From positions 736,001 through 800,000 of the forward strand of contig CAWABA010000006.1 in NCBI GenBank assembly GCA_963780185.1: a stretch of DNA of 64,000 bases, in the 5' to 3' direction. Under the pieces are notes generated by a model, which worked only from the letters and a program-made list of their open reading frames with translations, was not told the DNA's origin and did no database searches. Position 1 is the stretch's first letter; every line of letters begins with the position of its first letter. The translations under genes and the position numbers were made by a program. The DNA is from Candidatus Bathyarchaeota archaeon (GTDB lineage Archaea > Thermoproteota > Bathyarchaeia > Bathyarchaeales > Bathycorpusculaceae). This document shows, one piece after another, positions 24,187 through 45,662 of the stretch.

Positions 24187-24366
24187 TTACTCGCCCAAGT
24201 TTTGTTTGCCTTTCTCATTTAGTTCTGCGTTAATTCGGGAAATTTCTTGGCACCATTTCCTTCTTTCTTTATGGTCCAAACTTAAGATTTCGTCAATGTT
24301 CCAATGAAAATAATAGGCTATGAAGGCTACTTCACTGTAGATTTGTTCAGCGGGGTAGCCCTTCAT
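24187..24366 (-). CDS. DUF6760-like small protein, C-terminal partner of the tail assembly chaperone (59 aa, not in the ORF track)
   Basis: MKGYPAEQIYSEVAFIAYYFHWNIDEILSLDHKERRKWCQEISRIN...; ATGA overlap with the chaperone gene. Confidence 0.85.
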   Translation of the reverse strand: MKGYPAEQIYSEVAFIAYYFHWNIDEILSLDHKERRKWCQEISRINAELNEKGKQNLGE

Positions 24367-24728
24367 GCCCCCGGGCTGCCTATCTCCACTTGAAAGTCAG
24401 TTTTGCAGTTTGGGCACGTAGCCTTTATTGTGGTGTTGCCTTCGCCGTTTATTTTGTTGTAGAAGGCTTGAAGGTACGATAGGTCTGATGCGAAGAGGTT
24501 CTCGACTGTTTTGGTGCTTACCGCGTTGAGGTCGCCTAATTTGGTTACGACTCGCGACAGCACTATTACGGTTAGGTATGCTGGGTTTTGCTGTACTCGG
24601 GGGTCTTTTAGAGGGAGAATTTCGTCGGCGGCGGTTGCAAGCCTCATGACGCCTTTTTTGTGGAGAGTGCCGCTGTCGTCGACGTATCCTTTCGGCAAAG
24701 TGAACTCGTATTCCACTTGGATAACCAT
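24363..24728 (-). CDS. eCIS tail assembly chaperone with C-terminal Zn ribbon
   Basis: FTLPKGYVD...GVMRLATAADEI...LFASDLSYLQ..Y..IN, CPNC. Confidence 0.85.
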   Translation of the reverse strand: MVIQVEYEFTLPKGYVDDSGTLHKKGVMRLATAADEILPLKDPRVQQNPAYLTVIVLSRVVTKLGDLNAVSTKTVENLFASDLSYLQAFYNKINGEGNTTIKATCPNCKTDFQVEIGSPGA

Positions 24729-24744
24729 TTAATCGCCTCGCAGG

Positions 24745-25188
24745 TTACTTTGCCCGTTGCATCGATTCGAAAGCTATTTCCAACGTTTCAATAGCCACAT
24801 CGTTTCCTTTGGCGTTCATGTCAGGAGCCTTGTATTTGCTTGGCCATGCGTTGCCGAATTCCCATCTTGCCGCGTCGTTGCCTTCTTCATCCATAAGAAT
24901 CACAGCGATGTTGCGTCGGGCTTGAGCTAGCTGTCCCTGCTCAACCATCTTGCGCCAGTTGTAAAGGTCCATCGAGTTGGTTATTCCCCACTTTAACACT
25001 AGAATGCCGTGTTTGGTGAGGCCTGACAGTTTCCTGGCGTACAGGACTGCTTCGGTGCCTTCTCGGTACTCAATTATGTCGGTTGATGAATCTGGGATTG
25101 TGGCTTCGCTGAAGCCTGCTTGCTGGATGCTGTCTATTTCTATTCGGAAACGGAAGTTTGCGAAGGGGTCTTTTCTTTGTGTCGACAT
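24745..25188 (-). CDS. Tail tube protein (T4 gp19 / Afp1-like)
   Basis: DPFANFRFRIEI, IEYREG, LKWG, NAWPSKY, VAIETLEI. Confidence 0.95.
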   Translation of the reverse strand: MSTQRKDPFANFRFRIEIDSIQQAGFSEATIPDSSTDIIEYREGTEAVLYARKLSGLTKHGILVLKWGITNSMDLYNWRKMVEQGQLAQARRNIAVILMDEEGNDAARWEFGNAWPSKYKAPDMNAKGNDVAIETLEIAFESMQRAK

Positions 25189-25202
25189 ATCTTTTCACCT
25201 CA

Positions 25203-27293
25203 TTACTCCGTTGCAGCGGAGCCTCCTTGCCATTGAGCTATACGGAATATCACGAACTCCGCGGGTTTTGTGGCTGCTACTCCGACAACCACTACTAATC
25301 TGCCGTTGTCGATGTCATCCTGAGTCATGGTTGTTCGATCGCACTTAACGAAGAAAGCTTGGTTGGGAGTGGTACCCATCAATGCGCCGCTCTTCCACTG
25401 CGTAGTTAGGAACTGCGAAATCGTTTGGATCATTCTTGCCCACAGTTTTTCGTTGTTGGGTTCAAAAACAACCCATTGGGTTCCCTGCTCGATTGATTGT
25501 TCAAGGAATATGAATAAGCGTCTTACGTTGATGTACTGCCAAAGCGGGTCAGATGAACAGGTTCTGGCGCCCCAAACGCGGATGCCTCTTCCCGTGAATG
25601 CGCGTATGCAGTTTACGCCTTTAGGATTAAGTTGGCCTTGGTCGGCGTTGTTGATGAGGTATTTGAGTTCAGTTGTGTTCTGGACAGTCTCGTTTGCAGG
25701 TGCCTTAAAAACGCCTTTGTCGTTGTCGGTGCGCGCGTAAACGCCCATGATTGAGCCAGAAGGCGGAATAAAGATGTCTGCGTTATCGACTGGGTCAAAG
25801 ACTTTGATCCATGGATGGTACAGCGCTGCGTAAGAGGTATCGAAAAGATCGCGGAAACTCAGCACATCAGAAATTTGCTGGTAGTTCGGCGGAGCATCAA
25901 GAACTGCAAAGCGGTCCTTGTACATGTCGCAGAAGTCGGTTAGATTCTTGAGTGTGTCTGCATCGTAGACACCGGGGATTGCCATTATGCTTACGTCGGT
26001 GACCTCTTGGAAAGCCTGTAGCCCTGTTCTTTTTCCTGGGCCGCCGTCGTTTCCTTCGAAATCAGCTGGGGTAACTTTGGTGTAATTGCCGTCTGAGCCG
26101 TTCTGTAGGCTGATGTACCATGTTCCATTTTGAAGGGTGTCGTTCTCAGGCATCATGAAGGGGTTGGTTGCGCCTGAAGCGTCGGACATCAGAGCTGAGG
26201 CTTGAGCTTCAGGCCACGACAACGTTACGTAGCTGGAGACGTCGTTAACCATTTTGCCAAAATAGTTGTCTACGTTAGGGTTCAATGAAAGGTTGCTGAA
26301 GGTTTCCTTCAAGTTTGCTACCTGCACGGTTTTTCCCTGCTTCAGGGCATCTTCAATCAGGTAAACTTCCAGTTTGAATTCGCAAGTCGATAGGATCCGC
26401 TCGGGATGTGCTCCTGAACCGACCACGTCGCCGTCGCCTGTTAGGTGGCTTGACAAGGTGAGTACGTCGCCTTGGATTGAGTTCACCTGGGCGTACTGTT
26501 TAGTTGATCCGCTGTCGAAAACTACGATTCCGCCCGCGTAAAAGCCATTTTTGCTTTTAAGTTGGTACTGGAGGCTTTTTGTAGCGTCGCCGACAACGCT
26601 TGAAATCAGGGTTTTTGCTTGGCTTACTGGAACGGAGCGAAGCAAAAGCTTGTTGCCCCAATCACCGACGCTTGTCGCTGAGAAAGTAACTGTTGCGGAG
26701 GCGCTTGCGCTCGGCAGATTCTTGACGGTAACACGTGTGGTTGCCAATGCGTGATCGGCTGCGAGGGGAGTAGTTTTGTCCAGTGTTACCGTTGATTTTG
26801 ATGGGTCGTAGGAGGCGATGATCAAATCAACTTCGTTTTTGACCCATTTTGTAGGGTCTGTAGGGTCTTGGTCTTCAATTACCAGTTTGCATTTGCTATC
26901 TAAGAACATAATTGACTCAAACTGCAACGAGGAGTCTGCAGCCTTAAGGTCATCTGCAAGCTGCAGGACGGGCACTATTGAGACGACGTCGTCGCCTGCT
27001 TGAGAAGCGTCTGAGGGAGCGACACGCATTACGTAGCAGCCGCTGCCGCCGTTGATGAAGAAATTGTTGATTGCTTGAGCTAAAAAGCGGTATTGACCGT
27101 AGTCGCTTGAGAGGTAATTTCCAAAGATGGATTGGAACTCTGAAAAGCTTGATATGAACTGGGGTTTTCCTATGGTTGGTCCTTTTTCAGCGAGGCCTAG
27201 GAACCCAGCTGTACTGGTGCTTACGCCTTCTATGGGTTTAGCGCCAATTTCAATCTCTTCAATATAAACTCCGGGTGTTGAATAGGTGGGCAT
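25203..27293 (-). CDS. Contractile tail sheath protein
   Basis: TPGVYIEEI, YAALYHPW, PPSG, GVFKAPAN, RVWGART, YINVRRL, WVVFEPN, KPAEFV. Confidence 0.97.
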   Translation of the reverse strand: MPTYSTPGVYIEEIEIGAKPIEGVSTSTAGFLGLAEKGPTIGKPQFISSFSEFQSIFGNYLSSDYGQYRFLAQAINNFFINGGSGCYVMRVAPSDASQAGDDVVSIVPVLQLADDLKAADSSLQFESIMFLDSKCKLVIEDQDPTDPTKWVKNEVDLIIASYDPSKSTVTLDKTTPLAADHALATTRVTVKNLPSASASATVTFSATSVGDWGNKLLLRSVPVSQAKTLISSVVGDATKSLQYQLKSKNGFYAGGIVVFDSGSTKQYAQVNSIQGDVLTLSSHLTGDGDVVGSGAHPERILSTCEFKLEVYLIEDALKQGKTVQVANLKETFSNLSLNPNVDNYFGKMVNDVSSYVTLSWPEAQASALMSDASGATNPFMMPENDTLQNGTWYISLQNGSDGNYTKVTPADFEGNDGGPGKRTGLQAFQEVTDVSIMAIPGVYDADTLKNLTDFCDMYKDRFAVLDAPPNYQQISDVLSFRDLFDTSYAALYHPWIKVFDPVDNADIFIPPSGSIMGVYARTDNDKGVFKAPANETVQNTTELKYLINNADQGQLNPKGVNCIRAFTGRGIRVWGARTCSSDPLWQYINVRRLFIFLEQSIEQGTQWVVFEPNNEKLWARMIQTISQFLTTQWKSGALMGTTPNQAFFVKCDRTTMTQDDIDNGRLVVVVGVAATKPAEFVIFRIAQWQGGSAATE

Positions 27294-27318
27294 ATTCTCT
27301 AACCAGATTGAGCTTATC

Positions 27319-27954
27319 TTAAGAAGTTATATTTAATTTTATTGCTAAGGCTGACTTGCTTGCCCCTTCAGCAACTTTGTCAATGCTCACGGACGCCTCA
27401 ACGATGCCAACTTGAGCCTTAATGGTCATGACAGTTGTGCTGCCGTTGGTGGTTGCTTCCACGAACCCGGTGTCTGAAATGTCGTTGCTGGTCAGCTTGT
27501 TAAGGTAGAAAACGTATTCTCCTCGGTCAGTTGTAGAGGTGCTTAAAGCTCGCTCAACAAGGGTGACGTTTGCGTTGGGTACGGGGTTGCCTGTTTCGTC
27601 TTTGACCATTCCACGGATGAGGGTTGCTCCGTGCGGGAACGGGTATGCGGGAGTCGGGTCAAGCGCTATTTCCGTCGAGTTAAGAACTACATTGTTGTCT
27701 TTGTCAGGAGGCAAAAGGGTGAGGGGCAACGATTCAGCGTCGAAATAGCATTCGCTTTTAACTTGGACTATGTACGTTTTTGTGGTTGGAAGATTAAAAA
27801 ACAGGTAGAAACCAGATGGGTTCTTTACAGCAATGTAATCTTCGTCTTTCAAGGATACGGTGACTTTTCCTATCGGCTGTTGCTTCGAATAGTTGTCGGT
27901 AAGGCTTACAGCCAGTGAAAGACTTAAAGTGAATACATCTTGCGCCTGGCTCAT
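27319..27954 (-). CDS. Carboxypeptidase-regulatory-like (beta-sandwich) eCIS accessory protein
   Basis: PAYPFPHGATLIRGMVKDETGNPVPNANVTL...TTDRGEY. Confidence 0.75.
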   Translation of the reverse strand: MSQAQDVFTLSLSLAVSLTDNYSKQQPIGKVTVSLKDEDYIAVKNPSGFYLFFNLPTTKTYIVQVKSECYFDAESLPLTLLPPDKDNNVVLNSTEIALDPTPAYPFPHGATLIRGMVKDETGNPVPNANVTLVERALSTSTTDRGEYVFYLNKLTSNDISDTGFVEATTNGSTTVMTIKAQVGIVEASVSIDKVAEGASKSALAIKLNITS

Positions 27955-28566
27955 TTAGCTAATGTCCCCTGGCTGTTTTTGTTTGTAAGTTGTTACCTTC
28001 TGAGTTACCAATGAGCCGCCTGGCAAGCGAGATGGGTCAATCCTTACTGGAGACACGCTGCAGCTACAGCAAAGTTTGAGGGGGGTCGAAAGCATCGTCC
28101 AAAGCTTGTTTAAATCGTCAATTGAAAGGGAATCCAAAGTCAGTCTGATGTCTTCGCCGTTTTCAATCAAGTTTCCCTGAAGGATCGTTCCCCTCAATAC
28201 GGGGTAGTCAACGAAGGTTTGGATTATTTTTCCTAGGATGGTTTGGTCGTTGCTTGCGTCTTGAGTAAACGGCGTAACCAGATAGTGAAGACTCAAGTAA
28301 ACAGGCGGGTTCTGTCGCGGTTGAGGAGAAGGCATATTCTTCATGGCTGAAAACTCAGCCACGTTGTATAGATAGATGGAGAGTTTTGCAGATTTTTCGG
28401 TTTTAACCTCTTCAGGCGACGCCAGAGAAACCTGGCTTTCCTGGCTGGCTTGACTGTTGAAGATTGAGCTGAGGTCAGGGTCGTTTGCCAAATTGACGAA
28501 TAGGAGGTTGGCTAACGTTTTGCTGGCGTCGTTGATGACTGTGCTGGTGTTGTTTTGGTTACTCAA
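27955..28566 (-). CDS. DUF4255 / Pvc16-Afp16-like cap (terminator) protein
   Basis: LSIYLYNV, LSLHYLVTP, LGKIIQTF, LSIDDLNKLW, VSPVRI. Confidence 0.9.
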   Translation of the reverse strand: MSNQNNTSTVINDASKTLANLLFVNLANDPDLSSIFNSQASQESQVSLASPEEVKTEKSAKLSIYLYNVAEFSAMKNMPSPQPRQNPPVYLSLHYLVTPFTQDASNDQTILGKIIQTFVDYPVLRGTILQGNLIENGEDIRLTLDSLSIDDLNKLWTMLSTPLKLCCSCSVSPVRIDPSRLPGGSLVTQKVTTYKQKQPGDIS

Positions 28567-28699
28567 GTCAGCTTTCCCTTTTCAGAGAATTATGCGGTTG
28601 ACCGCTTAAAGAACTTTGGGAAATAGAAGAGCAAGCTTACAAGCTGTCTCGTAAGAGAACAGAAAAAATTATATTCACTTCGAACCATATAGAAATAAC

Positions 28700-30247
28700 A
28701 TGAGTTTTGCCCGCACGCAAACCAAGGCGGAGACCACCCCTCAAAAAGTTGGGGGCACCTCTTCTCAAACTAGAAAAGAAGGGATCACGCGTTCAAACGA
28801 CGCTGTGTCTAACATCTTGAAACTTCAAGAAACGGTAGGTAACAGAGCCGTTTCGGAACTGCTTGCATCCAGCCTTATTCAAGCTAAACTGAATGTTAGC
28901 TCATCAAATGATCCGTGCGAAATGGAAGCTGACCGACTTGCAGACGAGGCGATGACAATGACCCCGTCTAGCCTTCAGCATCGGCAAAACGAACTTATTC
29001 AAACCAAGAGCTCTAAGCCGATAACTTCAACTGCAATGCACCAAACAAAAAGCTCAGACGAAGCCAGCAATAATGTTCTCGAATCTGAAGGAATTACTAG
29101 AGAAGCTTTTGGCAAGAGCGACGGTCAACCTATGGAATCTGGGTTACGATCTGAAATGGAAGCTTACTTCCTGCAGGACTTCAGCAATGTGCGCATTCAC
29201 GCCGACGCCAATGCGAATGAGCTATCTGAAAAACTTCACGCTGACGCCTTAACTTTCGGAGGAAACATTTTCTTGCGGTCAGGCATGAACGCTCCGAATT
29301 CGCAGCAAGGCAAAAAACTTTTGATTCATGAGTTAACCCACGTCGTTCAGCAGCAGTCTCCAAGCCAGATTTCTGGTGTTCCAGACATTCTCCGTCAGGA
29401 GTCTGAGCCGAAGGAAACACCTGCAGAAACTGAGCAGCCTGTGTCTGAGGAAGGCGAGGTGACCGCTCAAAACAAAGACACATTCTTTATCCTTTGGAAC
29501 TTCAAGAATAACAGTGCCGAATTAAATTCAGCGTTCAAGACCGCGATGAACCAAATTGTCCAAATCGCGAAAGTAAATGCCCCCGGTTCAACCGTGGAGA
29601 TCCATGGTCACGCAAGCCGAACTGGCCCAGAGGAACTTAACGATAGACTATCGGAAATGCGGGCAAACGCTGTCGCACAGTACATGCTTTCGCAGGGGTT
29701 ACCGTCCACTCAGATCATTGATCTCCAAGGCTTCGGATACAACAAACCTGTAGCAGATAACAAGACCCCGTTGGGACAAAGCAAGAATCGAAGAGTAGAA
29801 GTCAAAATCAACCTTAAGAGCCCCGAGCCCCCTGAACCTACTGTAACAGAATCAACTTCGCCGAAAAAGGAGCAGCCAGCAATAAAACCTGATTATTCAA
29901 TTCCAAAGCCGGAAGAAGAACGCGAATGCAGAGGCGTCTCTTGCAAAGCATTCAACTGGATCAAACAGCATTGGTTCCCGGTTATATCCGAAGAAGACGT
30001 GAAAGCTGCAATAAAAATGGAAAAAGATTTTCTTTACCGAACAAAGTATGATGTCGATTACAGCGCAGCGTTCACGAAGAGGAGGGATAAGACGCAAGCT
30101 GACCTTCTCATGTTAGATCAAAATGTTGAAGCTGACGCAAGAAGAAGAATATTCAAGTTTATAACTGATAACGACCCATCCTTCGGGCGAATGTTAGGTC
30201 AAGCAAATCCCGTTGAGAAAATGGTGCCAAGCAACTACGCGAGATAG
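28700..30247 (+). CDS. DUF4157 (eCIS core) domain fused to an OmpA/MotB-like C-terminal domain and an unknown tail
   Basis: LQETVGNRAV, IQAKL, EMEADRLAD; DFSNVRIH...LLIHELTHVVQQ (HExxH); IHGHASRTG...NDRLSEMRANAV...NRRVEV. Confidence 0.88.
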   Translation: MSFARTQTKAETTPQKVGGTSSQTRKEGITRSNDAVSNILKLQETVGNRAVSELLASSLIQAKLNVSSSNDPCEMEADRLADEAMTMTPSSLQHRQNELIQTKSSKPITSTAMHQTKSSDEASNNVLESEGITREAFGKSDGQPMESGLRSEMEAYFLQDFSNVRIHADANANELSEKLHADALTFGGNIFLRSGMNAPNSQQGKKLLIHELTHVVQQQSPSQISGVPDILRQESEPKETPAETEQPVSEEGEVTAQNKDTFFILWNFKNNSAELNSAFKTAMNQIVQIAKVNAPGSTVEIHGHASRTGPEELNDRLSEMRANAVAQYMLSQGLPSTQIIDLQGFGYNKPVADNKTPLGQSKNRRVEVKINLKSPEPPEPTVTESTSPKKEQPAIKPDYSIPKPEEERECRGVSCKAFNWIKQHWFPVISEEDVKAAIKMEKDFLYRTKYDVDYSAAFTKRRDKTQADLLMLDQNVEADARRRIFKFITDNDPSFGRMLGQANPVEKMVPSNYAR

Positions 30248-30297
30248 GGCACGCAATTCCCTGCGGAAAAGTCTTCTTTGAAAAGGCTAGGTACACG

Positions 30298-32371
30298 CTA
30301 TTTCGTGAGGCTAAGGTTCCTGCCTAATTCTTCTTTCCCAAACACTTTCCCTATTTTCTGGTATTCCCTTTTCGCAGCCTTAACCAAATGCGCCATTTCC
30401 ACGTTCCCGCCGTCTTCAGCTGCAAGAAAAGCCGCTGTCAAAGTTATGTTTTTTATGTTTCCGCCGCTAATTTGCAGTTTTGATAAAGACTCAAAATCTA
30501 TCTTGCCCAGCGGCGCCATTTTGGGGAATATTTTTTTCCAGATTTCAAGTCGATAAGCATCGTTTGGAAACGGAAATTCAACTATGAAGTTCATGCGTCG
30601 AATGAAGGCTTCATCCATGTTTTTCTGCATGTTGCTGGCGAGGACGACGATGCCTTCATGCTCCTCCATTTTTTGCAGCAGATAATTGATTTCGATGTTT
30701 GCGTATCGGTCGTGGGCATCTTTGACTTCACTTCGTTTCCCAAACAGGGCATCTGCCTCGTCGAAAAACAAGACGGCGTTGGTGTCTTCTGCATCTTTGA
30801 AGATTCGATTAAGGTTCTTCTCGGTTTCGCCGATATATTTGCTCACGACCATTGACAGGTCAATTTTGTACATGTCTAACCCGAGTTCGCCCGCGATAAT
30901 TTCTGCCGCCATCGTTTTCCCTGTTCCAGACGGACCTGAAAAAAGAACGTTTAAGCCTCTGCTTCTGCTGTGCTTGTCGAAGCCCCACGATTCGTAGATT
31001 GTCGGATAGTTTTTGACGTAGTTGCAGACTTCACGGAGTTGGTCTTTCTTGTCAGGCAGCAAAACAATGTCGTCCCATTTGTAAAGCGGCGAAAGCTTCA
31101 TTGCGAAAGAAACGGGGTTTAGCTGCGCTCGGCAGCCTGCATAAATGTCTTCAAGCGTCATTCTGGGCGAGGCTGGGGTCACGCAGCAAAGCGGCGCTTT
31201 TAGCTGCCTCAACTGCCGCCTCGGCTTTGTCTCGTCCGAACTTGAATTTGACCGCGACATCCCCAATTCCCACCACGTCACCTGCCAGCGTCTGCCACAT
31301 TTTAAGCCGATCCAAATATTTTGCCCGCGGAACAGAAACCGTAACTGTGTGTCTGCTCAGAACCATCGGGGCCTTACTCGCGACAAATGTTAACCCGTCA
31401 AACAACTCAAGCTCCTCTAACACGGCTCTTTTCACGTCTTCCCCTGCGGAGTCTAACTTGTCAAAGTACGCAGCTGCGTGCTGCAGCTTGGCTTCCCTGA
31501 AGAAAAGCCTCAAAAGTGCTGGCAGGTTTTCACCTTTTGTCTTATCCAAATCTGCGAATATAATAGGCTTCTTGGCTTGGTGGCAGATGGCTTGGGCGAA
31601 TTCCTGCAGTTCAAAACTGCCCTGCAGCTGAATGACAGGTTCAGGGGTTTTAAGCGATGAGGAAAACGCCTGTAACTGTTGTTTAAGCGGGTCGGGTATT
31701 GCCAGAGTTTCGAACCCGTTTTCGGGATACTTCAGCGTTGCGAATGATGCCACGTGAGCGTCGGGTTCGTCGTAGCCGAGTAGGAAACTGATGATGCGGT
31801 CGTCAAGCTTGAGGGTTTTCTCCAGAAGCGGGAGGTCGCCTTCCTGCAGATGAAAAATCAAGTTCCCGATCAATGGCGCTTTGTAGCTGAAATGTTGCCT
31901 TGCCGCAATCTGGTCTTCTTTATCTTTAAAAAACAAGTTGACAATTAAGCCGACTGTGGCGTGTTTTTTTGTGATGTCGTCTTGAAGGTACGCGAAAAGC
32001 TTCTCGTATTTTGAGTCGAACTCCGAGACTAAAGCCACAAGTAAAGCGTCAACTTCGAAGCTGTCAAGACCGAACATTTCGGCAAGAACTTCAAGCCGTA
32101 GCTCCGTTCCCTGCAGCTTGCACGCAATTTTTTCTTCGGCGATTTTCTGTGCCAACGTCTCTTGTTCTGCCCGAGTTTCAGCGTTTGATTCATTCGCCTC
32201 GGTTTCTTTTGCTATAAGTTGGTCGATTTCTTCTTCAGAAATGAAAAGGCCTGGGAAAGTTTGGTTCTTGCTTGATTTGCGCCAATGCTGGATGCTTTCG
32301 GCAACGATTAGGTCGATTCTTTTGAGTTCATCCAGAATATGCTTTAGGTTGCTTGCTTGTAGGGGATTCAT
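30298..32371 (-). CDS. eCIS AAA+ ATPase (Afp15/Pvc15-like); frameshift near 31160
   Basis: N-terminal winged-helix part (FGLDSFE...YLQDDITKK); C-terminal GPSGTGKT, VVSKYIGETEKNL, LFFDEADALFGKRSEVKDAHDRYAN. Confidence 0.93.
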
Positions 32372-32454
32372 GCCTTGCGTTGCTGGGTCGCTGGTTGCTG
32401 ATGTAATTTACCGTACGCTCCTAATTATCGTCTCGATGCCGCCGCTGGAGCCGT

Positions 32455-34365
32455 CTAGTTGATGGTGGCGTTTATCATCAAAGATGCCTGTTTTGTGCTG
32501 CCTTTGTAGACGTCGTTGGTTGTGAAGGTTTCTCCGGGATAGTTAACTTGGAGGGTATAGTTGCCTGCCACTACGGTCTCTTCGCCCGCTAGTTGGAAGC
32601 TTAGTTTTCCCGTGGAATCTGAGTTGTTGGGCCCTTTAGTGATTTTTTTGTTTTCAGGGTTGGTTACATCAAGAGTAATGCCGTGAAGGATGGTACCTTT
32701 TGGAGGGGCAGTAACGGCGACTGCGATGGTTACCGGGTAGCCCGTCGTAACTTTAGGGGGGTTTGCAGCAATTTTTATTATGGATGTGTTTGTCGGCGCC
32801 TTGACGACAAGGGGATTTGACGCTGTGCAAGCCATGTAATTCACGTTGGCGCTCGCGAAGAGTTCTCCAGAGTAATCGACCTTAATTGTGTAGGTGCCTA
32901 CTGTCGAAAAAGCTACGTTTGGAATGGAAAACTTGCCGCTGCCGTCCGAGTTGTAAGTTCCTTGCTGTATCGCATTTCCAGCAGGGTCTATAAGTGTTAG
33001 TTTAATGCTGTGGAAAGCGTCAGCGGATGTTGGTGGAGCAGGAGTTATTGAGCCGTTAATCGAAAGCGATTGCCCAGCGGTTATGGTTGCGGGGGTTGTG
33101 TCGAAGGTCATTGAAGTTTCAACTGGAACGTTAAGGATAATCCAGCTTTCAAAAAGACCGCCTTCGGAACTGTCGCCTGTCGGCAGTTTCCCGCCCAAAA
33201 GGTCGCCGTCTAAGGATTTCCCGTCGTTGTCAAGCACACAGTCGCCTTTTATTCGAATAACCAATCTAAGTTTCGAGTAGTTTTTGCTGATTTCAGGCCC
33301 GAAGTATTGGGGTGCGTTTTCTCCGAAGACATTCAAGTCAAGGTGCACTCGGGCAATAGTTTTCTTTGCGGGTAACAAACCGACAGCGCTGCAGGCAGGC
33401 GTAATGGCGAGGTCTTTCTTCTCGATAAATGGATTGCGCCTTCGATTGTTACTGTAGCATTCAAGCGTTAAAGATACAGTGTCTTCGTTAATCGTCGCCG
33501 TATCCATCAGTCGATCGAAAACCACGAGGAAACCTTCATTGCTAAAGAGTCTATCACGCCACAACTGCGAGTCAGTAAAAGTATTGCCGTGTTTCCAGTT
33601 CATTTCTTGGACTTTCGGCAGGTCCTTCTCAACTTCGTTTTTGAGGCACTGCAGCAGATTGTAAAGGGTTCCGTTCCCAAATACGAGGTTTCGGCTATTG
33701 CCTATCTGATTGATGGTTATGGTGCCGTCTGCGTTCCGTGTGAAGTACACTTCGGCGAGAAGAACCGCGCCTTCATTCGAGGGAGAACAAGTAGTTTTGC
33801 AGAAGCCGTCCTTGCTTGTGTCGCTGCGGTAATCATTCCATTCAGCGCAGATGTCCTCGGTATGGAGGGGACTCAGGACTAACAGGTTCTGCAGAACGAT
33901 TTTGAAGCCCTCTTGCAGGGTGCTGTAGCAGCAGTTGTCCTTGCAGTTGGATGCTTTCAAAACGTTGGTGGCTGGGTCTAACCCGCAGAAATCATATTTT
34001 ATGTAAACTTTTGCGGGGCTGGTTGCTGTTGGCGAAAGATTCGGTGCAAAACTGTAACTGTAAGGTTGGGCGACAACTATTTCTCGTCCACAGGGGTCCA
34101 ACGCGACTCCTGGCGAGACGATGATGTTTGTTGTTGTGCCGTCTTGGGTGACTTGTAAGCCGCAGACGACTCCGACGCCGTGGATGAGTCTGTTTGCGAG
34201 GCGTTGTTTGTTGATGAAGTATTGCTGTTCCATGCGGAAGTCGTTTACGGTTAGTAGTTTGCCGTAAAAGTAGTTATTTCGCCTAAACGTGGGGAACGAT
34301 TCACATTGCACGTCGGCTATATCGGTTGTGTTTGTATCTGACATCTCAGCGCACTCTCGGTTCAA
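32455..34365 (-). CDS. Putative eCIS fibre/baseplate-peripheral protein with two C-terminal Ig-like domains
   Basis: RRNNYFYGKLLTVNDFRMEQQYF...HGVGVVCGLQV...PGVALDPCGREI N-terminus; tandem beta-rich repeats SD.(S/T)GK...G.YT..V.Y.GE. Confidence 0.7.
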   Translation of the reverse strand: MNRECAEMSDTNTTDIADVQCESFPTFRRNNYFYGKLLTVNDFRMEQQYFINKQRLANRLIHGVGVVCGLQVTQDGTTTNIIVSPGVALDPCGREIVVAQPYSYSFAPNLSPTATSPAKVYIKYDFCGLDPATNVLKASNCKDNCCYSTLQEGFKIVLQNLLVLSPLHTEDICAEWNDYRSDTSKDGFCKTTCSPSNEGAVLLAEVYFTRNADGTITINQIGNSRNLVFGNGTLYNLLQCLKNEVEKDLPKVQEMNWKHGNTFTDSQLWRDRLFSNEGFLVVFDRLMDTATINEDTVSLTLECYSNNRRRNPFIEKKDLAITPACSAVGLLPAKKTIARVHLDLNVFGENAPQYFGPEISKNYSKLRLVIRIKGDCVLDNDGKSLDGDLLGGKLPTGDSSEGGLFESWIILNVPVETSMTFDTTPATITAGQSLSINGSITPAPPTSADAFHSIKLTLIDPAGNAIQQGTYNSDGSGKFSIPNVAFSTVGTYTIKVDYSGELFASANVNYMACTASNPLVVKAPTNTSIIKIAANPPKVTTGYPVTIAVAVTAPPKGTILHGITLDVTNPENKKITKGPNNSDSTGKLSFQLAGEETVVAGNYTLQVNYPGETFTTNDVYKGSTKQASLMINATIN

Positions 34366-34382
34366 TTGTATCGTAAGTATGT

Positions 34383-35492
34383 TTATTTAAAACTTTCATT
34401 AAGAACTACAGGCTTTAACTCGGCGGGCTTCTCAATCGGCTTAAGGATGATTGGCTCCTCGACAGGCTTAATCTCAATGGGTTGAGTGATGACTGTATCC
34501 ACCGGAACCGTGGCTGTGCCCACGTACATTTCAGCCTTATACTCCGTCAAAAACGAGTTAACCCCAAGGTAACTGTGCCAATCCAGCTGGATTTTGTTTT
34601 CCAAAACCACGAAGCCCCCGACGGTGTGGGCTGGCTTTTCGTTTTCGATGACTCGTTTTATGACTTTTCGGTCAACGTCGGTTCGCACCTGGTTAGGCCA
34701 AAGCAACACGCAGAAAGAATATTTGTCACCGAACAATGCATCCAGCATCGCCTGAAACTGCGGGCTCCCAGTCTTGAGCAGCACACGCTCAACAACGGCA
34801 ACGGGGTATCTTCCCGTGTAAATGTTTATGATTTCTTCAAGCTCTTTTTTGGTTCCGCGGTAACGGTAAAGCAGAGCGGCTTTGCTGAGGAATTCCCGCC
34901 ACTTCGCCTCAGGCCAGTTTTCATCCTTAACTGTGCCGACCCATGTTGAAAGCCACGGGAGAAATTCGCTCGGAGTCAATTTGGCGTCGACAAGCTCAGG
35001 CGTGTCTTCTATTTCGTTCTCGATTTTTTGAAGGGTAAGCTCGAAAATTGTGAGGTACCTCTGCAAAAAGTCGTTGCCTGCGGGGTCCTGCTGGTAAAAC
35101 TCGGGCAAATACTGCATGTAGTTTACGTTCGCAAAGAAAGCTTTCACGTTTTTAACGGTGGGGAACTGCCCTTTTTTGTTGCCTACTATGGTGATTTTAA
35201 GCCAAAGATTCTGTCCCTTCCCAGCGTCAATTATGACTTGACGCTGGTTAACTGCGGGCTGCGACCACAAAGGCTGCAGTGTGGTGATGTCGTGGCTTTT
35301 TTGCGAAGTGACAAAATACGAGACAGTTATCTGAGTTTTCTTCGGCAGAACCGCGTGGATCATGATTTTGTGCCATATGCAATCGGTTATTTGGCTGTCG
35401 ACGTTTACTATCTGCTCTTTTTTGGTCGCGGACTTTACTGTCCAGTTGTTAGGGATCTGCACGATTTGGGGTGAGGAGGTTTCGCTGCTCAT
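34383..35492 (-). CDS. Phage tail protein, P2 gpI-like baseplate component
   Basis: YLPEFYQ, FLQRYLTIFE, FLPWLSTW, YRYRGT, EKPAHT. Confidence 0.88.
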   Translation of the reverse strand: MSSETSSPQIVQIPNNWTVKSATKKEQIVNVDSQITDCIWHKIMIHAVLPKKTQITVSYFVTSQKSHDITTLQPLWSQPAVNQRQVIIDAGKGQNLWLKITIVGNKKGQFPTVKNVKAFFANVNYMQYLPEFYQQDPAGNDFLQRYLTIFELTLQKIENEIEDTPELVDAKLTPSEFLPWLSTWVGTVKDENWPEAKWREFLSKAALLYRYRGTKKELEEIINIYTGRYPVAVVERVLLKTGSPQFQAMLDALFGDKYSFCVLLWPNQVRTDVDRKVIKRVIENEKPAHTVGGFVVLENKIQLDWHSYLGVNSFLTEYKAEMYVGTATVPVDTVITQPIEIKPVEEPIILKPIEKPAELKPVVLNESFK

Positions 35493-35493
35493 T

Positions 35494-36364
35494 CTAAAGG
35501 GTGTACCTCCTGCAGGTTGCTTGAGAGCCGACGATGTTGATTTGATGCGTGCCAGAATCCACCAGCGCGTGGGCGCCGACGATTATGTTGCCGTTGACCA
35601 GTGTGCAGTCGCCTGTACATGAAAGGGTTAGGTTCTGTACGCAGTCAACACCTTCGATGCCTTCGATGAATGCGACGATTTCAGATTTGTAGACGCTTCG
35701 TCCGAAAGGCCATCCGTCGTGGTCCCAGCCGCCGATGAGGGGATTAAGAAAAACCTCCAGCTTTTCAACGACCGAGCTTTTCACAGCGTCTTCCGACGAC
35801 AAAGGCTTTGTGCGTATGTCAGTTTGAACGCTGATTGGCACGAACTCGGGATCTATGACTTCAATCAGGGTTGTCAGAAGCCTGCCCTCATTCAAATGCT
35901 CGCAGACAAGCCGTTTGGCTGCGTCACTGGCTGCGGTCAACGTGTTCACGGTCGGCGGCTTAACGCAGACGATGACTTCCACCTTGTCGCTGTTCCAGAA
36001 GGCTTGAGCGCGTTCAATGTTTGCTTTAGGGGTTTCTTTGGCTAAAAACTCGTAATCTGATAGCGTGACGGCGCGGTATGGTTTTTTGAAGTCTTTTTGG
36101 ACTGCGAATATGGCATTGTTTAGGTTGTCGCCTCTCCGTGTTTTGGTGCCGAGCAGTTTGAGGAATTTGCGGATGTCACGGTCAGTTATTTGGTCGAGGA
36201 AGAACACTTGCGCTTCAGTTAACCACGCCAGCAGCCTCGATTAACGTGATGCCGGGGTCATGAAGGTTGTAATCTGTCCAGCCTGTGCCGTACTGGGGAA
36301 TGCGTTTTTTGGCTTCCTCAACTAGCTGCGCAAAAGTTACGTCGTCAAGGACAGGAACATCCAA
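35494..36364 (-). CDS. Short baseplate J/gp6-like protein (frameshift near 36235)
   Basis: N-terminus MDVPVLDDVTFAQLVEEAKKRIPQYGTGWTDYNLHDPGITLIE in an upstream frame; RAVTLSDYE, GWPFGRSV, IEGVDCV. Confidence 0.88.
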
Positions 36365-36365
36365 G

Positions 36366-39300
36366 TCAGGTACCTCCCGAAAGCTTCACGTTGACTTGAT
36401 GTGTGCCGCTGCAGATAAGTGCGTAACCAGGCAAGACGATGTTGTTGTCTGAAGGCAAAGTGTCTCCCGTTTGTGCATCGCAGATTGTTACTTTCAGGTT
36501 TTGAATATAGTCGACTTGCGGGATGCTTTGAAGAAGCCCCAGAATATCTGAGTCGCAGGGAACCTTGCCGAAATCCCAGCCTTTGCCGTCTGAGCCGCCG
36601 TGGAGCGGATGCAGGAAAGTTTTAAGCGAATTCAACGCGGCGAAGTTAACTGCAGATGCAGAATTGATGTCTGCGACGTAAATGTCTGCGGTTACTGACA
36701 CCGCTAGATATGTTGGTCCCGTTACTGTGAGGGTTGATACGGATATGGGGTTGTGGCTTTTGAGGTAGTCTTCTACGGTTTGAAGCATCCGTGAAGAAGG
36801 CGTAGGCTGGTCCACTGGGCTTTCAGGGATTATTATGACGGCTACGCAGCCACTTTGAATTTGTCCTTCACTGTTCAGGTTAGGAATGCACTTAACCCTT
36901 GCGACGTCGCCTGAGGCTTCAATCGAGAGCCATTCATAGTCTTCCTGAGCCACCGCGCGGTCCCTGTTCTGAACCGTTTTAGGTCCTCTTTTCTTAGCGC
37001 GGTCCACGGTTTCAGCGTCGGCTCCGCCTTCTGCGTCGTCGATGTTGACGGCTCTGTCAATGCCCGCAAGCGCCGTAACCAGCTTCTTAACCTCGCCTAA
37101 AGCCACGTCGCCTATGACTCCGCCGCCAGTCTGGTAAGTTGCTTTGATTGAAGCGCCAACCGTGGGAATCATGCCGTTTTCGCCGTCGCCGAAGGTTATT
37201 TCGCCTGAGATTCTGTCAAGCATGTAGCTTCTGCTGTTTTCGTCTGAATCAAAAAAGTCATCAACTACCACCCATTGCACCCAGATTTTTGCCGGGTCAG
37301 ATTGATCAACTATGTAGTCTCCTTCTGTTGGGACGGCTGACTCCTGAACCCATAAGTTTGCCGAAGCCACTGGGGTTCTGCTCAATTTCAGAGGTGTAGC
37401 CATTAGTCCGTCGCTTGTTCCCAAGAGTTCGTCCGTGACGGTTTCAGCCTGCATAGCCAAAGTCGAATTAAGTGAAACCGCGTAGGGTATTGGGGCTGCA
37501 GGTATCTCTTTTATGGCGTTGGGAACTGAGAATTTTGCGTTGTAAATATCCACCTTGTTGCATGGTTGCCCACCTGTAGCCGTCGAATCTACATATTTTG
37601 CAAGTTGGGCATCTGGAATGTAATTCTGCATAATTCGGAGAAGCTGCGTGTTCAAACGGAAGCCTTTGGTTCCTAATGGAAGAAGCCGCATTTTGTTGGT
37701 GTCGCCCTCGGCGTTTACTAACGCATTAACTACGTCGGCTAATGTTTGCCCCAAGGATTGAAACTTGTTTTCGACGACTTCACCGCGGATCCAATACATT
37801 GTTTGCCCAAATTTTTCTTCAGCACCTATGTCGCTGGGAGCCAAGAACTCGATGGCGCCGCTCTGCGTCAAATTATCCGTTGAATCTTCAACTTCGATGG
37901 GAACCCATTCTTCCGCAGGCGTCTTCCTCAGGTAACTCCACACTATCCTCGGCTTTTTGTCATCCAAATACTCCTGTTTGCGCAGAGCGAAGAAAACGCT
38001 GATTGTGCCTTCCCCAAGCGGCGTGTCGAAGCCCAGATAAAGCGTTTGGTTGGCCTCTTGGACAGGCAAAAACGGTTGGAACGGAGCGGCTGTGTCTGTC
38101 CAGTTTTGGAGTTGCAGGTTGTTTTTTGCTGAACAGGTGACTGTTTGTGCGCTCATTTGATTTTTTATTATAATGTCGTAGATTTGGGGTGGGGCATCTT
38201 TTATTTCGGGTTTACTTCCCAAGGTTATTGACCGATAGTTGCCAGAGGCTATGCGTGCTCTAATCCAAAAGTTCTCTTTGTTGTTGACTTTTGTCGAGGT
38301 CATGTCGCTGGGACAGGTGAATATGACTTGAGGATAGTTTGTGTTAGGATTTATCTTCTCATCGAAGAGGCATTTGACGCCTTTCAGGTTGCTCCACGTT
38401 TTTCCGTCCCAGTACTCCCACGAAACCAAAAGCGGCGAATCACCCTTTGCGCCTGCCGCGTCAGTAATTACGCCTGGAACGCCAGCGGTCTCAACGGAGA
38501 AGCAGATTTCCACCCGCGTGTTTATCTTTGAAAAAGCTTCTTGGCTTCCAATGTAGAATACATCGGATGCGTTCGGTTGCATGCCGAAGGGGTAAAAATC
38601 CTGGGCTAAATAGATTGGAACATCATTGTAAAAGGCGAGGTCTGGACGGGTCACGTTGATAACTTTGGCTTCCAGAGATTTTAATGTGGGAAGCGCCGAG
38701 GGCAAGGCGGGGTCGACTTTGGCTCTTATCCAGAAAGTTTCGGTTTCGCCGACGCGTTTTTTCGCTGACGCCGTCGAGTTCCCTTTTGTTAGTGTTATTG
38801 TTTCTTTTCCGTTTCCTGCGGGGGCGGGAGTCGCAGTTGTGAAGTCTATCCAGTCTGTTTCAGCGTCTTGGGTGTCTTGGAAGCTGTAGGACCATTTGAC
38901 ATTGTTGGCAAGGCTTGCTTTTGGGTTTGGGTCCGCGTACTCAACCAGCAACTGAATTTGGGCAGACTGCGTTTCAGGAGGGTTCCTTCGTCTTGCCCCA
39001 TGCTTTAGTCGTCTACTTGCTCCTTTTTTGAGGTTAAAAAGCGAATCGTCACCTAAGTACAAGGCATGTTCCTGCATGGCGGGGCTGACGAAAAACGTTG
39101 TCTGCTTCGTATCCGAGTTTAACTCGGTTAAGTGGTCATAAACTTGATCCGTGCTCCGATCAACGCTCACTAAAGCTTTTAGCTGGGAAACCGTGGCGGT
39201 GAAGGGTCTTTCCGTTTCGAACATTATTTTGGTTTCAGTGGAAACTTGGGTTCCCGCTGGAACATCGACGTTTTCTTGGGCGCCTTTGCTTAGGATGAAG

Positions 39301-39575
39301 TTAATGGGCGTTCTTGCAGATTGGGGCGGCAGCAATTTCGTTCCTAAAACGTTTAGGTAGGCCACGGTTTGTTTGTCTGGAACCTGGTTTAGCTGGGTGA
39401 TTGTATGGTCAGCCATGTAGCTTAGGATTTGCAGTAGGGCGTACGCTACGTCTTTTCGGTTACGCCACGCCGCCACATCCGTTCCCGTGAGGTCAGGCAC
39501 CTGTTTGGAGGCTAAGTCTTCAAGCATTGCCAGGATTGCTGCGCGGTCTCGCGGATCGATGTTGGGTGCCGACAA
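36366..39575 (-). CDS. Large baseplate J/gp6-like protein (Afp11-like)
   Basis: LNQVPDK, VPAGTQV, WEYWDG, FGDGENG, RDRAVAQEDYE, FLHPLHGG..GW.FG. Confidence 0.92.
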   Translation of the reverse strand: MSAPNIDPRDRAAILAMLEDLASKQVPDLTGTDVAAWRNRKDVAYALLQILSYMADHTITQLNQVPDKQTVAYLNVLGTKLLPPQSARTPINFILSKGAQENVDVPAGTQVSTETKIMFETERPFTATVSQLKALVSVDRSTDQVYDHLTELNSDTKQTTFFVSPAMQEHALYLGDDSLFNLKKGASRRLKHGARRRNPPETQSAQIQLLVEYADPNPKASLANNVKWSYSFQDTQDAETDWIDFTTATPAPAGNGKETITLTKGNSTASAKKRVGETETFWIRAKVDPALPSALPTLKSLEAKVINVTRPDLAFYNDVPIYLAQDFYPFGMQPNASDVFYIGSQEAFSKINTRVEICFSVETAGVPGVITDAAGAKGDSPLLVSWEYWDGKTWSNLKGVKCLFDEKINPNTNYPQVIFTCPSDMTSTKVNNKENFWIRARIASGNYRSITLGSKPEIKDAPPQIYDIIIKNQMSAQTVTCSAKNNLQLQNWTDTAAPFQPFLPVQEANQTLYLGFDTPLGEGTISVFFALRKQEYLDDKKPRIVWSYLRKTPAEEWVPIEVEDSTDNLTQSGAIEFLAPSDIGAEEKFGQTMYWIRGEVVENKFQSLGQTLADVVNALVNAEGDTNKMRLLPLGTKGFRLNTQLLRIMQNYIPDAQLAKYVDSTATGGQPCNKVDIYNAKFSVPNAIKEIPAAPIPYAVSLNSTLAMQAETVTDELLGTSDGLMATPLKLSRTPVASANLWVQESAVPTEGDYIVDQSDPAKIWVQWVVVDDFFDSDENSRSYMLDRISGEITFGDGENGMIPTVGASIKATYQTGGGVIGDVALGEVKKLVTALAGIDRAVNIDDAEGGADAETVDRAKKRGPKTVQNRDRAVAQEDYEWLSIEASGDVARVKCIPNLNSEGQIQSGCVAVIIIPESPVDQPTPSSRMLQTVEDYLKSHNPISVSTLTVTGPTYLAVSVTADIYVADINSASAVNFAALNSLKTFLHPLHGGSDGKGWDFGKVPCDSDILGLLQSIPQVDYIQNLKVTICDAQTGDTLPSDNNIVLPGYALICSGTHQVNVKLSGGT

Positions 39576-39577
39576 GG

Positions 39578-39982
39578 TTAGGTTCCCTCGTTTAGGTAGA
39601 ATGGGTAAACTATGTTGAACTGGTTGTTTGTTGACCGCACAGTGTAGTCGATGCTGATGAGCAATTGACCATTCTGCGCTTGCTCCGTTGAAACATTCAC
39701 GTTAACCAGGGCGATGCGGGGTTCGTATTTGGTGAGGGCTTCGCGCACCGTCATTTCGATGAGGCTTAGCGTGGACATGTTTATTGTTTGGAAAACCATT
39801 TCGTGGATGCCGCATCCGAAATCTGGATGCATCAGCCGCTCGCCCTGCGCGGTGCTCAAAATAATGATTATTGACTCTTTGATGTCGTCTTCATATTTTG
39901 AAAGAGCAATTTTTCCAGACGACGCATCAACGCCTACAGGAAGCTTCCACCCGACACCCAAAAAATCCTTCGACACAGCCAT
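39578..39982 (-). CDS. GPW/gp25 sheath initiator (Afp9-like)
   Basis: FLGVGW, ILSTAQGERLMHPDFGC, YEPRI, VYPFYL. Confidence 0.95.
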   Translation of the reverse strand: MAVSKDFLGVGWKLPVGVDASSGKIALSKYEDDIKESIIIILSTAQGERLMHPDFGCGIHEMVFQTINMSTLSLIEMTVREALTKYEPRIALVNVNVSTEQAQNGQLLISIDYTVRSTNNQFNIVYPFYLNEGT

Positions 39983-39987
39983 CGCTC

Positions 39988-40290
39988 CTACCCTATTATC
40001 ACCGTTAAACACCCGTTAACTATCGTGTTGGGGGGACCTGCTTCGCTGATGATGTCGCCAACCCGTGCTGCAGGCAAATTGTTGATTAAAACAGTGGTGC
40101 TTCCCATCATGACGACGCCGCCTACGTGGGGGTTAGGGGTTGACAGGGGACAGGAATGAACGTCAGATGTTGCTCTCCAAGCAGGCTGCCCGCCTATCAG
40201 AACGTTTGAGCTGCCTAGCCCAGGAGACAGGGGGCTTCCATGACTTGTCAAATCTCCAACTCTTGCTGCCGGCGGCATACCATCCATCAA
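39988..40290 (-). CDS. PAAR spike tip protein
   Basis: PAARVGD twice, PAWR; no C-terminal toxin extension. Confidence 0.95.
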   Translation of the reverse strand: MMDGMPPAARVGDLTSHGSPLSPGLGSSNVLIGGQPAWRATSDVHSCPLSTPNPHVGGVVMMGSTTVLINNLPAARVGDIISEAGPPNTIVNGCLTVIIG

Positions 40291-40293
40291 CTC

Positions 40294-42008: not shown

Positions 42009-42014
42009 CGTGGG

Positions 42015-42695: not shown

Positions 42696-42697
42696 GC

Positions 42698-43648: not shown

Positions 43649-43650
43649 CT

Positions 43651-45643: not shown

Positions 45644-45662
45644 TTTCTCGTTTCTCCTTTTT

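Follow-up and report, generated by a model that had tools for sequence, protein, structure and literature searches.

A candidate injection-system cargo with fused DUF4157 and OmpA-like domains in a member of the Bathyarchaeia

What is an OmpA-like domain, a fold that ordinarily grips the bacterial cell wall, doing in a protein of an archaeon without peptidoglycan? This question is raised by a gene in a 64,000-nucleotide stretch of a Bathyarchaeia genome (hereafter the window, whose forward strand, read 5' to 3', supplies the position numbers used here). The open reading frame (ORF) 28700..30247 (+) starts with ATG, encodes a protein of 515 residues, and is located within a complete contractile injection cluster, between the genes for a cap protein and an ATPase. 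Its predicted product combines a leader, a DUF4157 domain, an OmpA-like domain, a linker, and a tail domain. The analyses described below indicated that this protein is probably a cargo of an extracellular contractile injection system (eCIS). The full account, in which it is a cargo, is loaded into the particle, and acts in the wall zone of a target cell, is considered to have a somewhat better than even chance of being correct.

Domain layout and evidence for a cargo role

Residues 144-220 (29129..29359, +) matched Pfam family PF13699 (eCIS_core, formerly DUF4157) with an E-value of 1.1e-25 and 90 bits, against a cut-off of 22, over profile positions 1-77 of 79. Its HExxH motif, HELTH, occupies residues 210-214, and H167, H210, E211, and H214 were invariant among 25 aligned homologs. 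An OmpA-like domain (residues 250-372; 29447..29815, +) was detected by Pfam, phmmer, and Foldseek, with a match to PF00691 at residues 268-364 (E 5.7e-19; 68.7 bits, cut-off 27.2). Both Pfam matches were well above the curated cut-offs, in agreement with an earlier reading of the same DNA (hereafter the original prediction), which had named a DUF4157 domain with HELTH motif and an OmpA domain. In the region ahead of DUF4157 (residues 1-143; 28700..29128, +), 78% of the residues are polar or disorder-promoting, and stretches with predicted disorder (residues 1-65 and 103-131) flank a conserved helix (residues 72-93); motifs in common in this region are MSFA at the start, L-x-L-Q-x-T-x-G-N, and IQAKL. 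Behind the OmpA-like domain, a Pro-rich linker (residues 373-404; 29816..29911, +; 88% polar or disorder-promoting residues) leads to a small helical C-terminal tail domain (residues 405-515; 29912..30244, +) without known family or fold.

An AlphaFold2 model of the 515-residue protein, built from a 25-sequence alignment, was confident for the helix at residues 72-93, the DUF4157 domain (about residues 140-220, with a predicted local distance difference test value, pLDDT, of about 85-92), the OmpA-like domain (residues 250-372), and the tail (residues 400-515). Residues 1-47, 49-65, 103-131, 221-245, and, within the linker, 377-399 had pLDDT values below 50. The predicted template modelling score (pTM) of the full-protein model was 0.35, thus indicating no fixed arrangement between the domains. 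No signal peptide or membrane segment was detected in the 515 residues (maximum 19-residue Kyte-Doolittle mean 0.79; polar N-terminus). Relative to the closest full-length homologs, P0002 and P0003, the OmpA-like domain was the best conserved segment of the protein (60-61% identity), followed by the tail (49%), the DUF4157 domain (45-47%), and the N-terminus (30-32%). In a profile search of the PDB, the best 60 of 78 chains were all OmpA-like, and a phmmer search of PDB sequences with residues 1-250 gave no match at E≤1, the solved domain 6H56 of the VgrG2b C-terminal and Tpe1 effectors included.

DUF4157 has been described as a core domain specific to eCIS and located N-terminally in toxins (PMC8213781); its share among known eCIS toxins is 36% (PMC11297309). 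In AlgoCIS, the lumen of the tube is filled by the DUF4157 proteins Cgo1 and Cgo2, which are no longer present after contraction (PMC8894135); their disordered N-terminus acts as the loading signal, with involvement of the AAA protein Alg15 (bioRxiv 10.64898/2026.05.27.728243). Five DUF4157 proteins of a haloarchaeal contractile injection system (CIS) were secreted more by the wild type than by a sheath mutant (PMC11566945).

The architecture of the 515-residue protein follows the plan of the Cgo proteins and of the eCIS-associated toxins (EATs): a predicted disordered leader, DUF4157, and a C-terminal part differing from relative to relative. This variation was seen in a comparison set of 72 loci on genome contigs encoding relatives, 37 of which had an ATPase match. 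Across the 72 loci, nearly all matches to the protein ended at about residue 220-270, those of L003 and L033 extending further. The sequences behind DUF4157 were mutually unrelated in the nine loci compared, and C-termini differed among L005, L069, L075, L036, L041, L044, L090, and L094. When ten of the proteins were scanned, Pfam OmpA was found in two (L003 and L033), and no other family recurred. An ATPase gene was situated upstream within 5 kb, on the strand of the DUF4157 gene, in 23 of the 37 loci; in the window, an Afp15/Alg15-type AAA ATPase gene lies 50 nucleotides away, though frameshifted in the assembly. An invariant architecture, which the original prediction had named among the observations that would speak against its proposal, was not what was found: the C-termini vary, and the corresponding slots in congeneric genomes hold other payloads.

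PF13699 occurs once in the whole genome, in the candidate cargo gene, which supported the proposal that this gene is the only plausible cargo of the locus. The other unannotated ORFs of the cluster (121, 237, and 316 residues) were not counted as candidates because they are conserved in other eCIS loci. No ORF was found between the stop codon at 30247 and the ATPase gene at 30298 that could represent an adjacent second (candidate immunity) gene, a result that fits a target structure absent from the producer.

The OmpA-like domain and its place of action

Residues 303-306 of the OmpA-like domain read GHAS and stand opposite GHTD when aligned by phmmer with 3TD3, the OmpA-like domain of A. baumannii (E 1.2e-15). 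In the same alignment, the Arg of the LSxxRA motif (R321) and the NRRV motif are retained. The modelled domain matched 3td5_A, the OmpA-like domain in complex with a diaminopimelate (DAP)-containing peptide, in a Foldseek comparison (E 2.1e-9; template modelling score 0.86, normalised by target). Asp271 and Arg286 of the A. baumannii domain bind DAP (PMC5974059). One partner of this pair is present in the candidate cargo, as R321, and the other is replaced, by Ser306.

Motifs were counted in stored homologs having both an OmpA-like motif and a DUF4157 HExxH (n=14). Asp was absent from 11 of these 14 DUF4157-linked motifs (AS in ten, TS in one) and kept in three. Two fusions from bacterial loci, L003 (Bacteroidota) and L033 (Anaerolineales), read GYAS, and their OmpA-like parts are followed by other domains at the C-terminus. 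Since the motif without Asp is also found in bacterial fusions, it is a trait of the DUF4157-linked OmpA-like subfamily, bacteria included, and no host adaptation. The replacement of GHTD by GHAS that the original prediction had pointed out was thus recovered, whereas its interpretation as a special change in this host did not hold. Its proposed fusion of DUF4157 with an OmpA domain was likewise found in this gene, as an architecture already present in bacterial records (13 of 120 among the matches listed, for example in Acidobacteriota and Azoarcus sp. CIB).

Replacement of the Asp could also mean that the protein is a cargo whose GxAS-type OmpA-like part binds another ligand, such as a different wall polymer, a target protein, or the tail, and that the target may be non-bacterial. 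The frequency of DUF4157-linked motifs without the DAP-binding Asp, with the GYAS motifs of L003 and L033, is consistent with this explanation, as are the occurrence of an OmpA-like stretch before the tail, as a single unit, in at least seven of eight tail clusters and the action of haloarchaeal DUF4157 CIS cargoes on other archaea (PMC11566945). It is opposed by the retention of Arg321, NRRV, and the whole fold, by the presence of the form without Asp in bacterial loci whose likely prey have peptidoglycan, and by a member of the tail family (P0121) that retains the Asp, as GYSD. To our knowledge, no alternative ligand is recognised, which also counts against the explanation. Binding of another ligand is therefore regarded as unlikely.

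Proteins of the OmpA-like family are typically exported to the wall compartment of their own cell by a signal peptide, lipobox, or membrane anchor. The candidate cargo, which has no hydrophobic segment and a polar N-terminus, does not show the features of such own-wall export. PF00691 was found once in the whole genome, in the candidate cargo gene, and in six of 14 control genomes, all of them bacterial, with none of the four archaea among the controls positive. Because the producer has no peptidoglycan, no other OmpA-family protein, and no export signal on this one, the most likely and simplest reading is that the OmpA-like domain works in a bacterial target. Such a payload suggests, but does not prove, a machine aimed at bacteria; action on bacterial peptidoglycan itself is given slightly less than an even chance. 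As the best conserved segment of the protein, the OmpA-like domain does not look like a decaying relic.

In the main text of four eCIS papers (PMC11297309, PMC12210884, PMC8894135, and PMC11566945), whose supplements may list such architectures, the term OmpA is absent. In an inspected case from the literature naming both DUF4157 and OmpA, OmpA served, in the text available, as an export tag only. No literature joining the terms Bathyarchaeia and contractile injection was found; the portions available of literature naming Bathyarchaeota with contractile injection mentioned only sheath homologs.

In the mechanism proposed, the cargo protein, which bears no secretion signal, would be synthesised in the cytoplasm, the Afp15-like AAA ATPase encoded next door would recognise its disordered leader and thread it into the tube lumen, and contraction would release it into or at the target cell. 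The payload behind the leader would consist of the zincin-like DUF4157 domain with its HExxH motif, the OmpA-like domain, and, connected by the Pro-rich linker, the rare helical tail. The OmpA-like domain would anchor the protein to the cell wall of a bacterium, and the zincin domain, the tail domain, or both would exert their effect there, in the periplasm or wall zone. The gene itself would lie in a slot for inverted, exchangeable cargo genes, flanked by the cap and ATPase genes, and use its own promoter-like element. The domains and their architecture, the gene position, the common leader before varied payloads, and the conservation are observations; loading, injection, wall binding, a bacterial target, and any toxicity are what we infer for this protein. 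A precedent for wall-zone action of the zincin part is offered by metallopeptidases of the VgrG2b C-terminal type, which are often annotated as DUF4157 and are toxic only in the periplasm and in an HExxH-dependent manner (PMC6899460).

Several points weigh against this account. Judged from the alignment, Ser in place of the DAP-binding Asp may make classical DAP-type binding weak or altered. Wall-binding folds in such machines can be purely structural, as illustrated by the LysM domain in the CIS_tube protein of the same cluster. DUF4157 was dispensable for AlgoCIS loading (bioRxiv 10.64898/2026.05.27.728243), and the toxicity of Cgo1 was independent of metalloprotease motifs (PMC8894135). The ATPase gene of the cluster is read in two frames, so that the eCIS may be defective here. 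Finally, DUF4157 and this eCIS type are rare: counting its own genome in each case, the protein was matched in three of 401 genomes sampled from the phylum and in two of 41 relatives.

The likeness to Cgo1 and Cgo2 of AlgoCIS comprises a disordered N-terminus, a central DUF4157 domain, a differing C-terminal part, the lack of a secretion signal, and a gene inside the eCIS cluster beside an Afp15/Alg15-type AAA ATPase gene. Unlike these proteins, the 515-residue protein has an OmpA-like and a rare helical C-terminus, an archaeal host, and an inverted gene with its own promoter-like element; lumen location and loading were demonstrated for Cgo1 and Cgo2 and are extrapolated to it here. The related Algoriphagus loci L037 and L044 have only the DUF4157 region in common with it. 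As in EATs (Geller 2021, PMC8213781; Danov 2024, PMC11297309), a DUF4157 HExxH near the N-terminus, a linker, a variable C-terminus, and an eCIS operon are present, whereas no recognised toxin domain was found in the 515 residues. The VgrG2b C-terminal and Tpe1 effectors (PMC6899460) share an HExxH domain that is often annotated as DUF4157, and combine contractile delivery with toxicity in the bacterial periplasm. In contrast to these effectors, the gene studied here has no adjacent immunity gene, its product showed, for residues 1-250, no direct sequence match to a solved structure, and its catalysis is putative.

The CIS or type VI secretion system of Halogeometricum borinquense (PMC11566945) is similarly an archaeal contractile system with DUF4157 substrates. 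The Halogeometricum system stays bound to the cell, is directed at other haloarchaea, and has toxic members encoded next to immunity genes; the system in the window, by contrast, is an Afp/PVC-type eCIS that includes a cap and an ATPase gene, has no adjacent immunity candidate, and has a payload pointing to the bacterial wall. The peptidoglycan-binding OmpA-like domains of 3TD3/3TD5, Pal, MotB, and YfiB resemble the domain described here in sequence, predicted fold, the Arg of LSxxRA, and NRRV. It differs from them by Ser for Asp, by the lack of a signal peptide, lipobox, or anchor, by its fusion behind DUF4157, and by its peptidoglycan-free host.

The class of DUF4157 eCIS cargoes and, in bacterial records, the DUF4157-OmpA fusion were known already. 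New are a candidate archaeal eCIS cargo with this fusion, the rare module of OmpA-like domain and tail, and an inverted slot whose promoter-like element and leader are conserved. These observations bear on the question whom archaeal injection machines target, the one studied archaeal system acting on archaea. A cargo with a wall-binding fold, from a producer without such a wall and without an immunity gene, would provide a concrete and cheap handle on antagonism of archaea against bacteria.

The tail family and the inverted cargo slot

The original prediction had described an unknown tail of about 130 residues. No family or fold was matched, in line with that description, and the length required revision: 151 residues follow the Pfam OmpA match, comprising the Pro-rich linker and a folded domain of about 111 residues. 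Structure prediction, which had been proposed as a check, yielded a confident helical domain. Folded alone from eight sequences, the tail had a mean pLDDT of 83.6 and a pTM of 0.76, with a short hairpin in front of the helices; this hairpin carries an invariant C-x4-C (C410 and C415), and one helix an ARxRIF...DPxF motif. Foldseek searches of the PDB and BFVD gave no match to the tail model at E≤0.001, and the best VIA-align Z-score against 48,161 representative chains, 5.9, was generic for helical models. Pfam detected nothing beyond OmpA, PADLOC nothing in the tail (ZorB/MotB-type matches arose via the OmpA part only), and a search of the ESM Atlas with the tail gave no usable match. These results indicated that the tail domain is a new small family without fold match.

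The family is small. Exhaustive phmmer searching of 1.84 billion representatives identified seven proteins, and a profile of seven tails identified eight clusters in a 5.8-billion collection. A word-indexed search with the tail of P0001 returned only itself, and a metagenome scan returned two short loci with a single protein type. Pfam OmpA exceeded its cut-off in three of the eight clusters (the query, P0002, and P0003) and fell below it, at 19.0-23.4 bits, in four more. A G-x-A-S...N-x-x-L-x-x-x-R-A motif was present in P0124, P0125, and P0122, P0121 kept the Asp (GYSD) in the alignment, and P0123 had no OmpA match and a doubtful alignment in this region. An OmpA-like stretch therefore precedes the tail in at least seven of the eight clusters, and Arg321 was invariant across the eight-sequence alignment of the family. 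DUF4157 was found in five clusters (P0001, P0002, P0003, P0124, and P0125) and was absent from P0121, P0122, and P0123, but the contigs of the latter are only 1.9-2.8 kb long. In one cluster, a member protein carries the name of a Methanomicrobiaceae archaeon. Because an OmpA-like stretch stands before nearly all tails and the clusters are few, the two parts appear to be one very rare travelling unit, an invariant pair inside its own tiny family.

A separate observation concerns P0123, which is encoded without DUF4157 in loci L077 (649-1758) and L078 (1447-2025). The next gene on the same strand has a Beta-lactamase2 match (PF13354, E 9e-7), a hint that the tail family could be linked to cell-wall chemistry.

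The position of the gene was compared with that in other members of the genus. The Pvc16_N cap family was present in 34 of the 81 genomes of the genus (own genome included), and 12 of these Pvc16_N places were examined and sorted by tblastn with the proteins of the window. Two (L090 and L094) had a multi-gene layout like that of the window and one (L097) another eCIS type with a DUF4157 match; in eight, only a tube gene stood beside the cap, and in one the cap stood by itself. The machine of L090 was closely similar to that of the window (tube 86%, AAA 80%, and cap 66% identical), and its slot between cap and ATPase held an inverted gene for 332 residues followed by a gene for 140 residues. 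The first 60 or so residues of the 332-residue protein resemble those of the candidate cargo, and it has no Pfam domain and hence neither DUF4157 nor OmpA. In L094, the slot held three inverted genes (792, 362, and 745 residues), two of which encode the leader; DUF4157 is present in the 362-residue protein, and the 745-residue protein has the leader with another C-terminus. Leader residues L42, Q43, G47, N48, and Q61 were invariant across eight cargo-slot proteins with different C-termini. The common leader and swapped payloads of these congeners constitute a natural test set for an archaeal eCIS loading signal.

Since slot genes are inverted in L090 and L094 as well, with differing payloads, the inverted orientation is a feature that this lineage conserves in a cargo slot of exchangeable content. 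The original prediction had stressed the inversion of this gene; the inversion was confirmed, and proved to be neither unique, in view of L090 and L094, nor common elsewhere, as the DUF4157 gene was opposite to the ATPase gene in four of the 37 loci with an ATPase match and on the same strand in 33.

A promoter-like element, an A-rich stretch followed by TTATATT (28661..28675, +), ends 24 nucleotides before the ATG. All 15 bases of this 15-mer are identical in L090, at equal distance to the ATG. From its sequence and position, we infer an archaeal promoter (B recognition element and TATA box) that would give a leaderless or nearly leaderless transcript. On the cap side of the intergenic region, a stretch containing GCTTAAGAA (with one extra A in the window), then three to four bases, a T, two to three bases, and GGAAA, recurs in three congeneric loci (window, 28574-28606; L090, 9367-9395; L094, 8565-8595, -). 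This stretch may be a shared regulatory site of the cap/sheath unit.

Two further observations were made at these places. The 140-residue gene of L090 (10527-10949), which follows the 332-residue payload gene and had no Pfam match, is a candidate for an immunity or partner protein. At L087, L088, L089, L091, L092, L093, L095, and L098, the Pvc16_N cap adjoins a gp19-type tube that is 57-70% identical to that of the window, with no other match to the eCIS proteins of the window within 18 kb (15 kb at L095, owing to the contig end). Such cap-tube pairs may represent a tail-like system, either reduced or highly diverged, that is common in the genus.

A comparison of slots also bears on the possibility that the protein serves the machine as an accessory or core part, such as a protease for maturation or release, in which case the OmpA-like domain would be a relic of a bacterial own-wall anchor. 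The Pfam name eCIS core, the listing of loading, release, maturation, and trafficking as possible DUF4157 roles (Geller et al., PMC8213781), and AlgoCIS loading without a need for DUF4157 are in line with such a role, as are the location of the gene among structural genes, not at the operon end, and the LysM domain of a tube-like protein, a wall-binding fold that persists as a structural part. However, a relic should decay, whereas the OmpA-like domain is the most conserved segment, and without a signal peptide it could not reach a wall of the producer. The closely related L090 machine moreover has neither DUF4157 nor OmpA in its slot, so that neither is needed, and the leader is common to unrelated payloads. 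An accessory role is accordingly judged improbable, more so than a cargo binding another ligand.

The cargo reading can be extended to a more ambitious proposal, which we consider possible and advance only tentatively. In this proposal, an eCIS of Bathyarchaeia would be used against bacteria, and the OmpA-like domain without Asp would hold the cargo on prey peptidoglycan. The OmpA-like domain and tail would form a new wall-directed effector module (eight clusters, at least one from a second archaeal lineage, Methanomicrobiaceae), no immunity gene would be needed since the producer has no such wall, and the inverted slot, with a promoter of its own and a common leader, would be a cassette for swapping payloads.

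The gene cluster, its flanks, and the host

The eCIS structural cluster (24363..44079, -) was delimited by Pfam scans, ORF lists, and synteny with the Methanosarcinales locus L005 and the congener L090, and its gene content reads as that of a complete Afp/PVC-type eCIS. On one side of the candidate cargo gene, in order of position and on the - strand, it comprises a 121-residue protein conserved in other eCIS loci, a gp19-type tube (24745-25188), a sheath (25203-27293), a CarboxypepD_reg protein (27319-27954), and the Afp16-like Pvc16_N cap or tail terminator (27955..28566; Pfam E 1.6e-35). On the other side, the Afp15/Alg15-like loading ATPase (30298..32371), with a winged-helix N-terminal part and an AAA domain (Pfam E 1.4e-50 and 9.7e-29, respectively), is followed on the same - strand by an Ig-like fibre (32455-34365), Tail_P2_I (34383-35492), a 237-residue protein conserved in other eCIS loci, Baseplate_J (36366-39575), and gp25 (39578-40012). 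Then come a PAAR-like ORF of 100 residues (39988-40290), read from its sequence alone, an OB-fold spike (40294-40935), a GPD-like hub (40932-42008), a CIS_tube protein with a C-terminal LysM domain (42015-42695; LysM E 5.7e-8), a 316-residue protein conserved in other eCIS loci, and a second gp19-type tube (43651-44079). Apart from the PAAR-like ORF and the 121-, 237-, and 316-residue proteins, these assignments were based on Pfam. The LysM domain, which adds a second wall-binding fold to this archaeal cluster, is probably a structural heritage of baseplate proteins.

Every Pfam-supported gene of the cluster is on the - strand, the candidate cargo gene excepted, and the remaining + strand ORFs of at least 110 residues all overlap long - strand genes. 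The claim that this is the sole coding + strand gene of the cluster was therefore borne out. It is divergent from the cap gene, with a gap of 133 nucleotides, and convergent with the ATPase gene, whose stop side lies at 30298, with a gap of 50 nucleotides.

The ATPase gene consists of two overlapping ORFs in different frames, of 406 residues (winged-helix) and 327 residues (AAA). A tblastn search with the 852-residue homolog from the Methanosarcinales locus L005, a single ORF, aligned first in frame -1 (32323-31235) and then in frame -2 (31191-30301), which places the frame change at about 31191-31235, close to four consecutive C. The L090 homolog is likewise a single ORF (699 residues). Possible causes of the split are an error in the assembly, a genuine defect, and programmed frameshifting.

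With this gene in two frames near a homopolymer, and with related eCIS and DUF4157 genes patchy in the genus, the locus might be viewed as a decaying, non-functional island in which the gene has no current role. Such decay is considered very unlikely: all other genes of the cluster are intact, the 515-residue ORF included, the composition matches the surroundings, and a single homopolymer frameshift in an assembly may be a sequencing error. GC content was 0.467 for the candidate cargo gene, 0.486 for the cluster, and 0.44 and 0.47 for the flanks, and composition thus gave no signal of recent transfer.

The assembly comprises 2.75 Mb in 13 contigs. The archaeal host assumed in the original prediction was supported by an archaeal 16S rRNA (RF01959, 1472 bits) on another contig of the assembly, by a deoxyhypusine synthase gene within the window, and by a radical SAM protein, also in the window, that falls into a 90%-identity cluster with proteins named Candidatus Bathyarchaeia archaeon. 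A search of the genome for mcrA did not find this gene. Mis-binning of the eCIS locus is unlikely because it is flanked by archaeal-type genes on one 945-kb contig and because close clusters occur in other genomes of the genus.

Beyond the cluster, ORF 46327-48243 (-) encodes a 638-residue surface protein with a signal-like start, QTSDGGYA-like repeats, Ig-like parts, and a C-terminal membrane segment. It gave a weak papain-fold toxin match (E 0.008) and was rejected as a cargo, since it reads as a signal-anchored surface protein. ORFs 44423-44935, 45176-45754, and 45663-45971 were also rejected as cargo: the first reads as a secreted protein of low complexity, the second as a membrane protein, and the third as a helix-turn-helix regulator. 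Past the surface protein lie a tRNA gene (48385-48457, -), which could mark an island border, and a gene for a NosD/beta-helix protein of 1022 residues. A second Pvc16_N match in the same genome, outside the eCIS cluster, was found in a 296-residue frame about 200 nucleotides after the 16S rRNA gene (G000:C9:26636-27091), and frames resembling it, of 288-316 residues, occur in about ten congeners.

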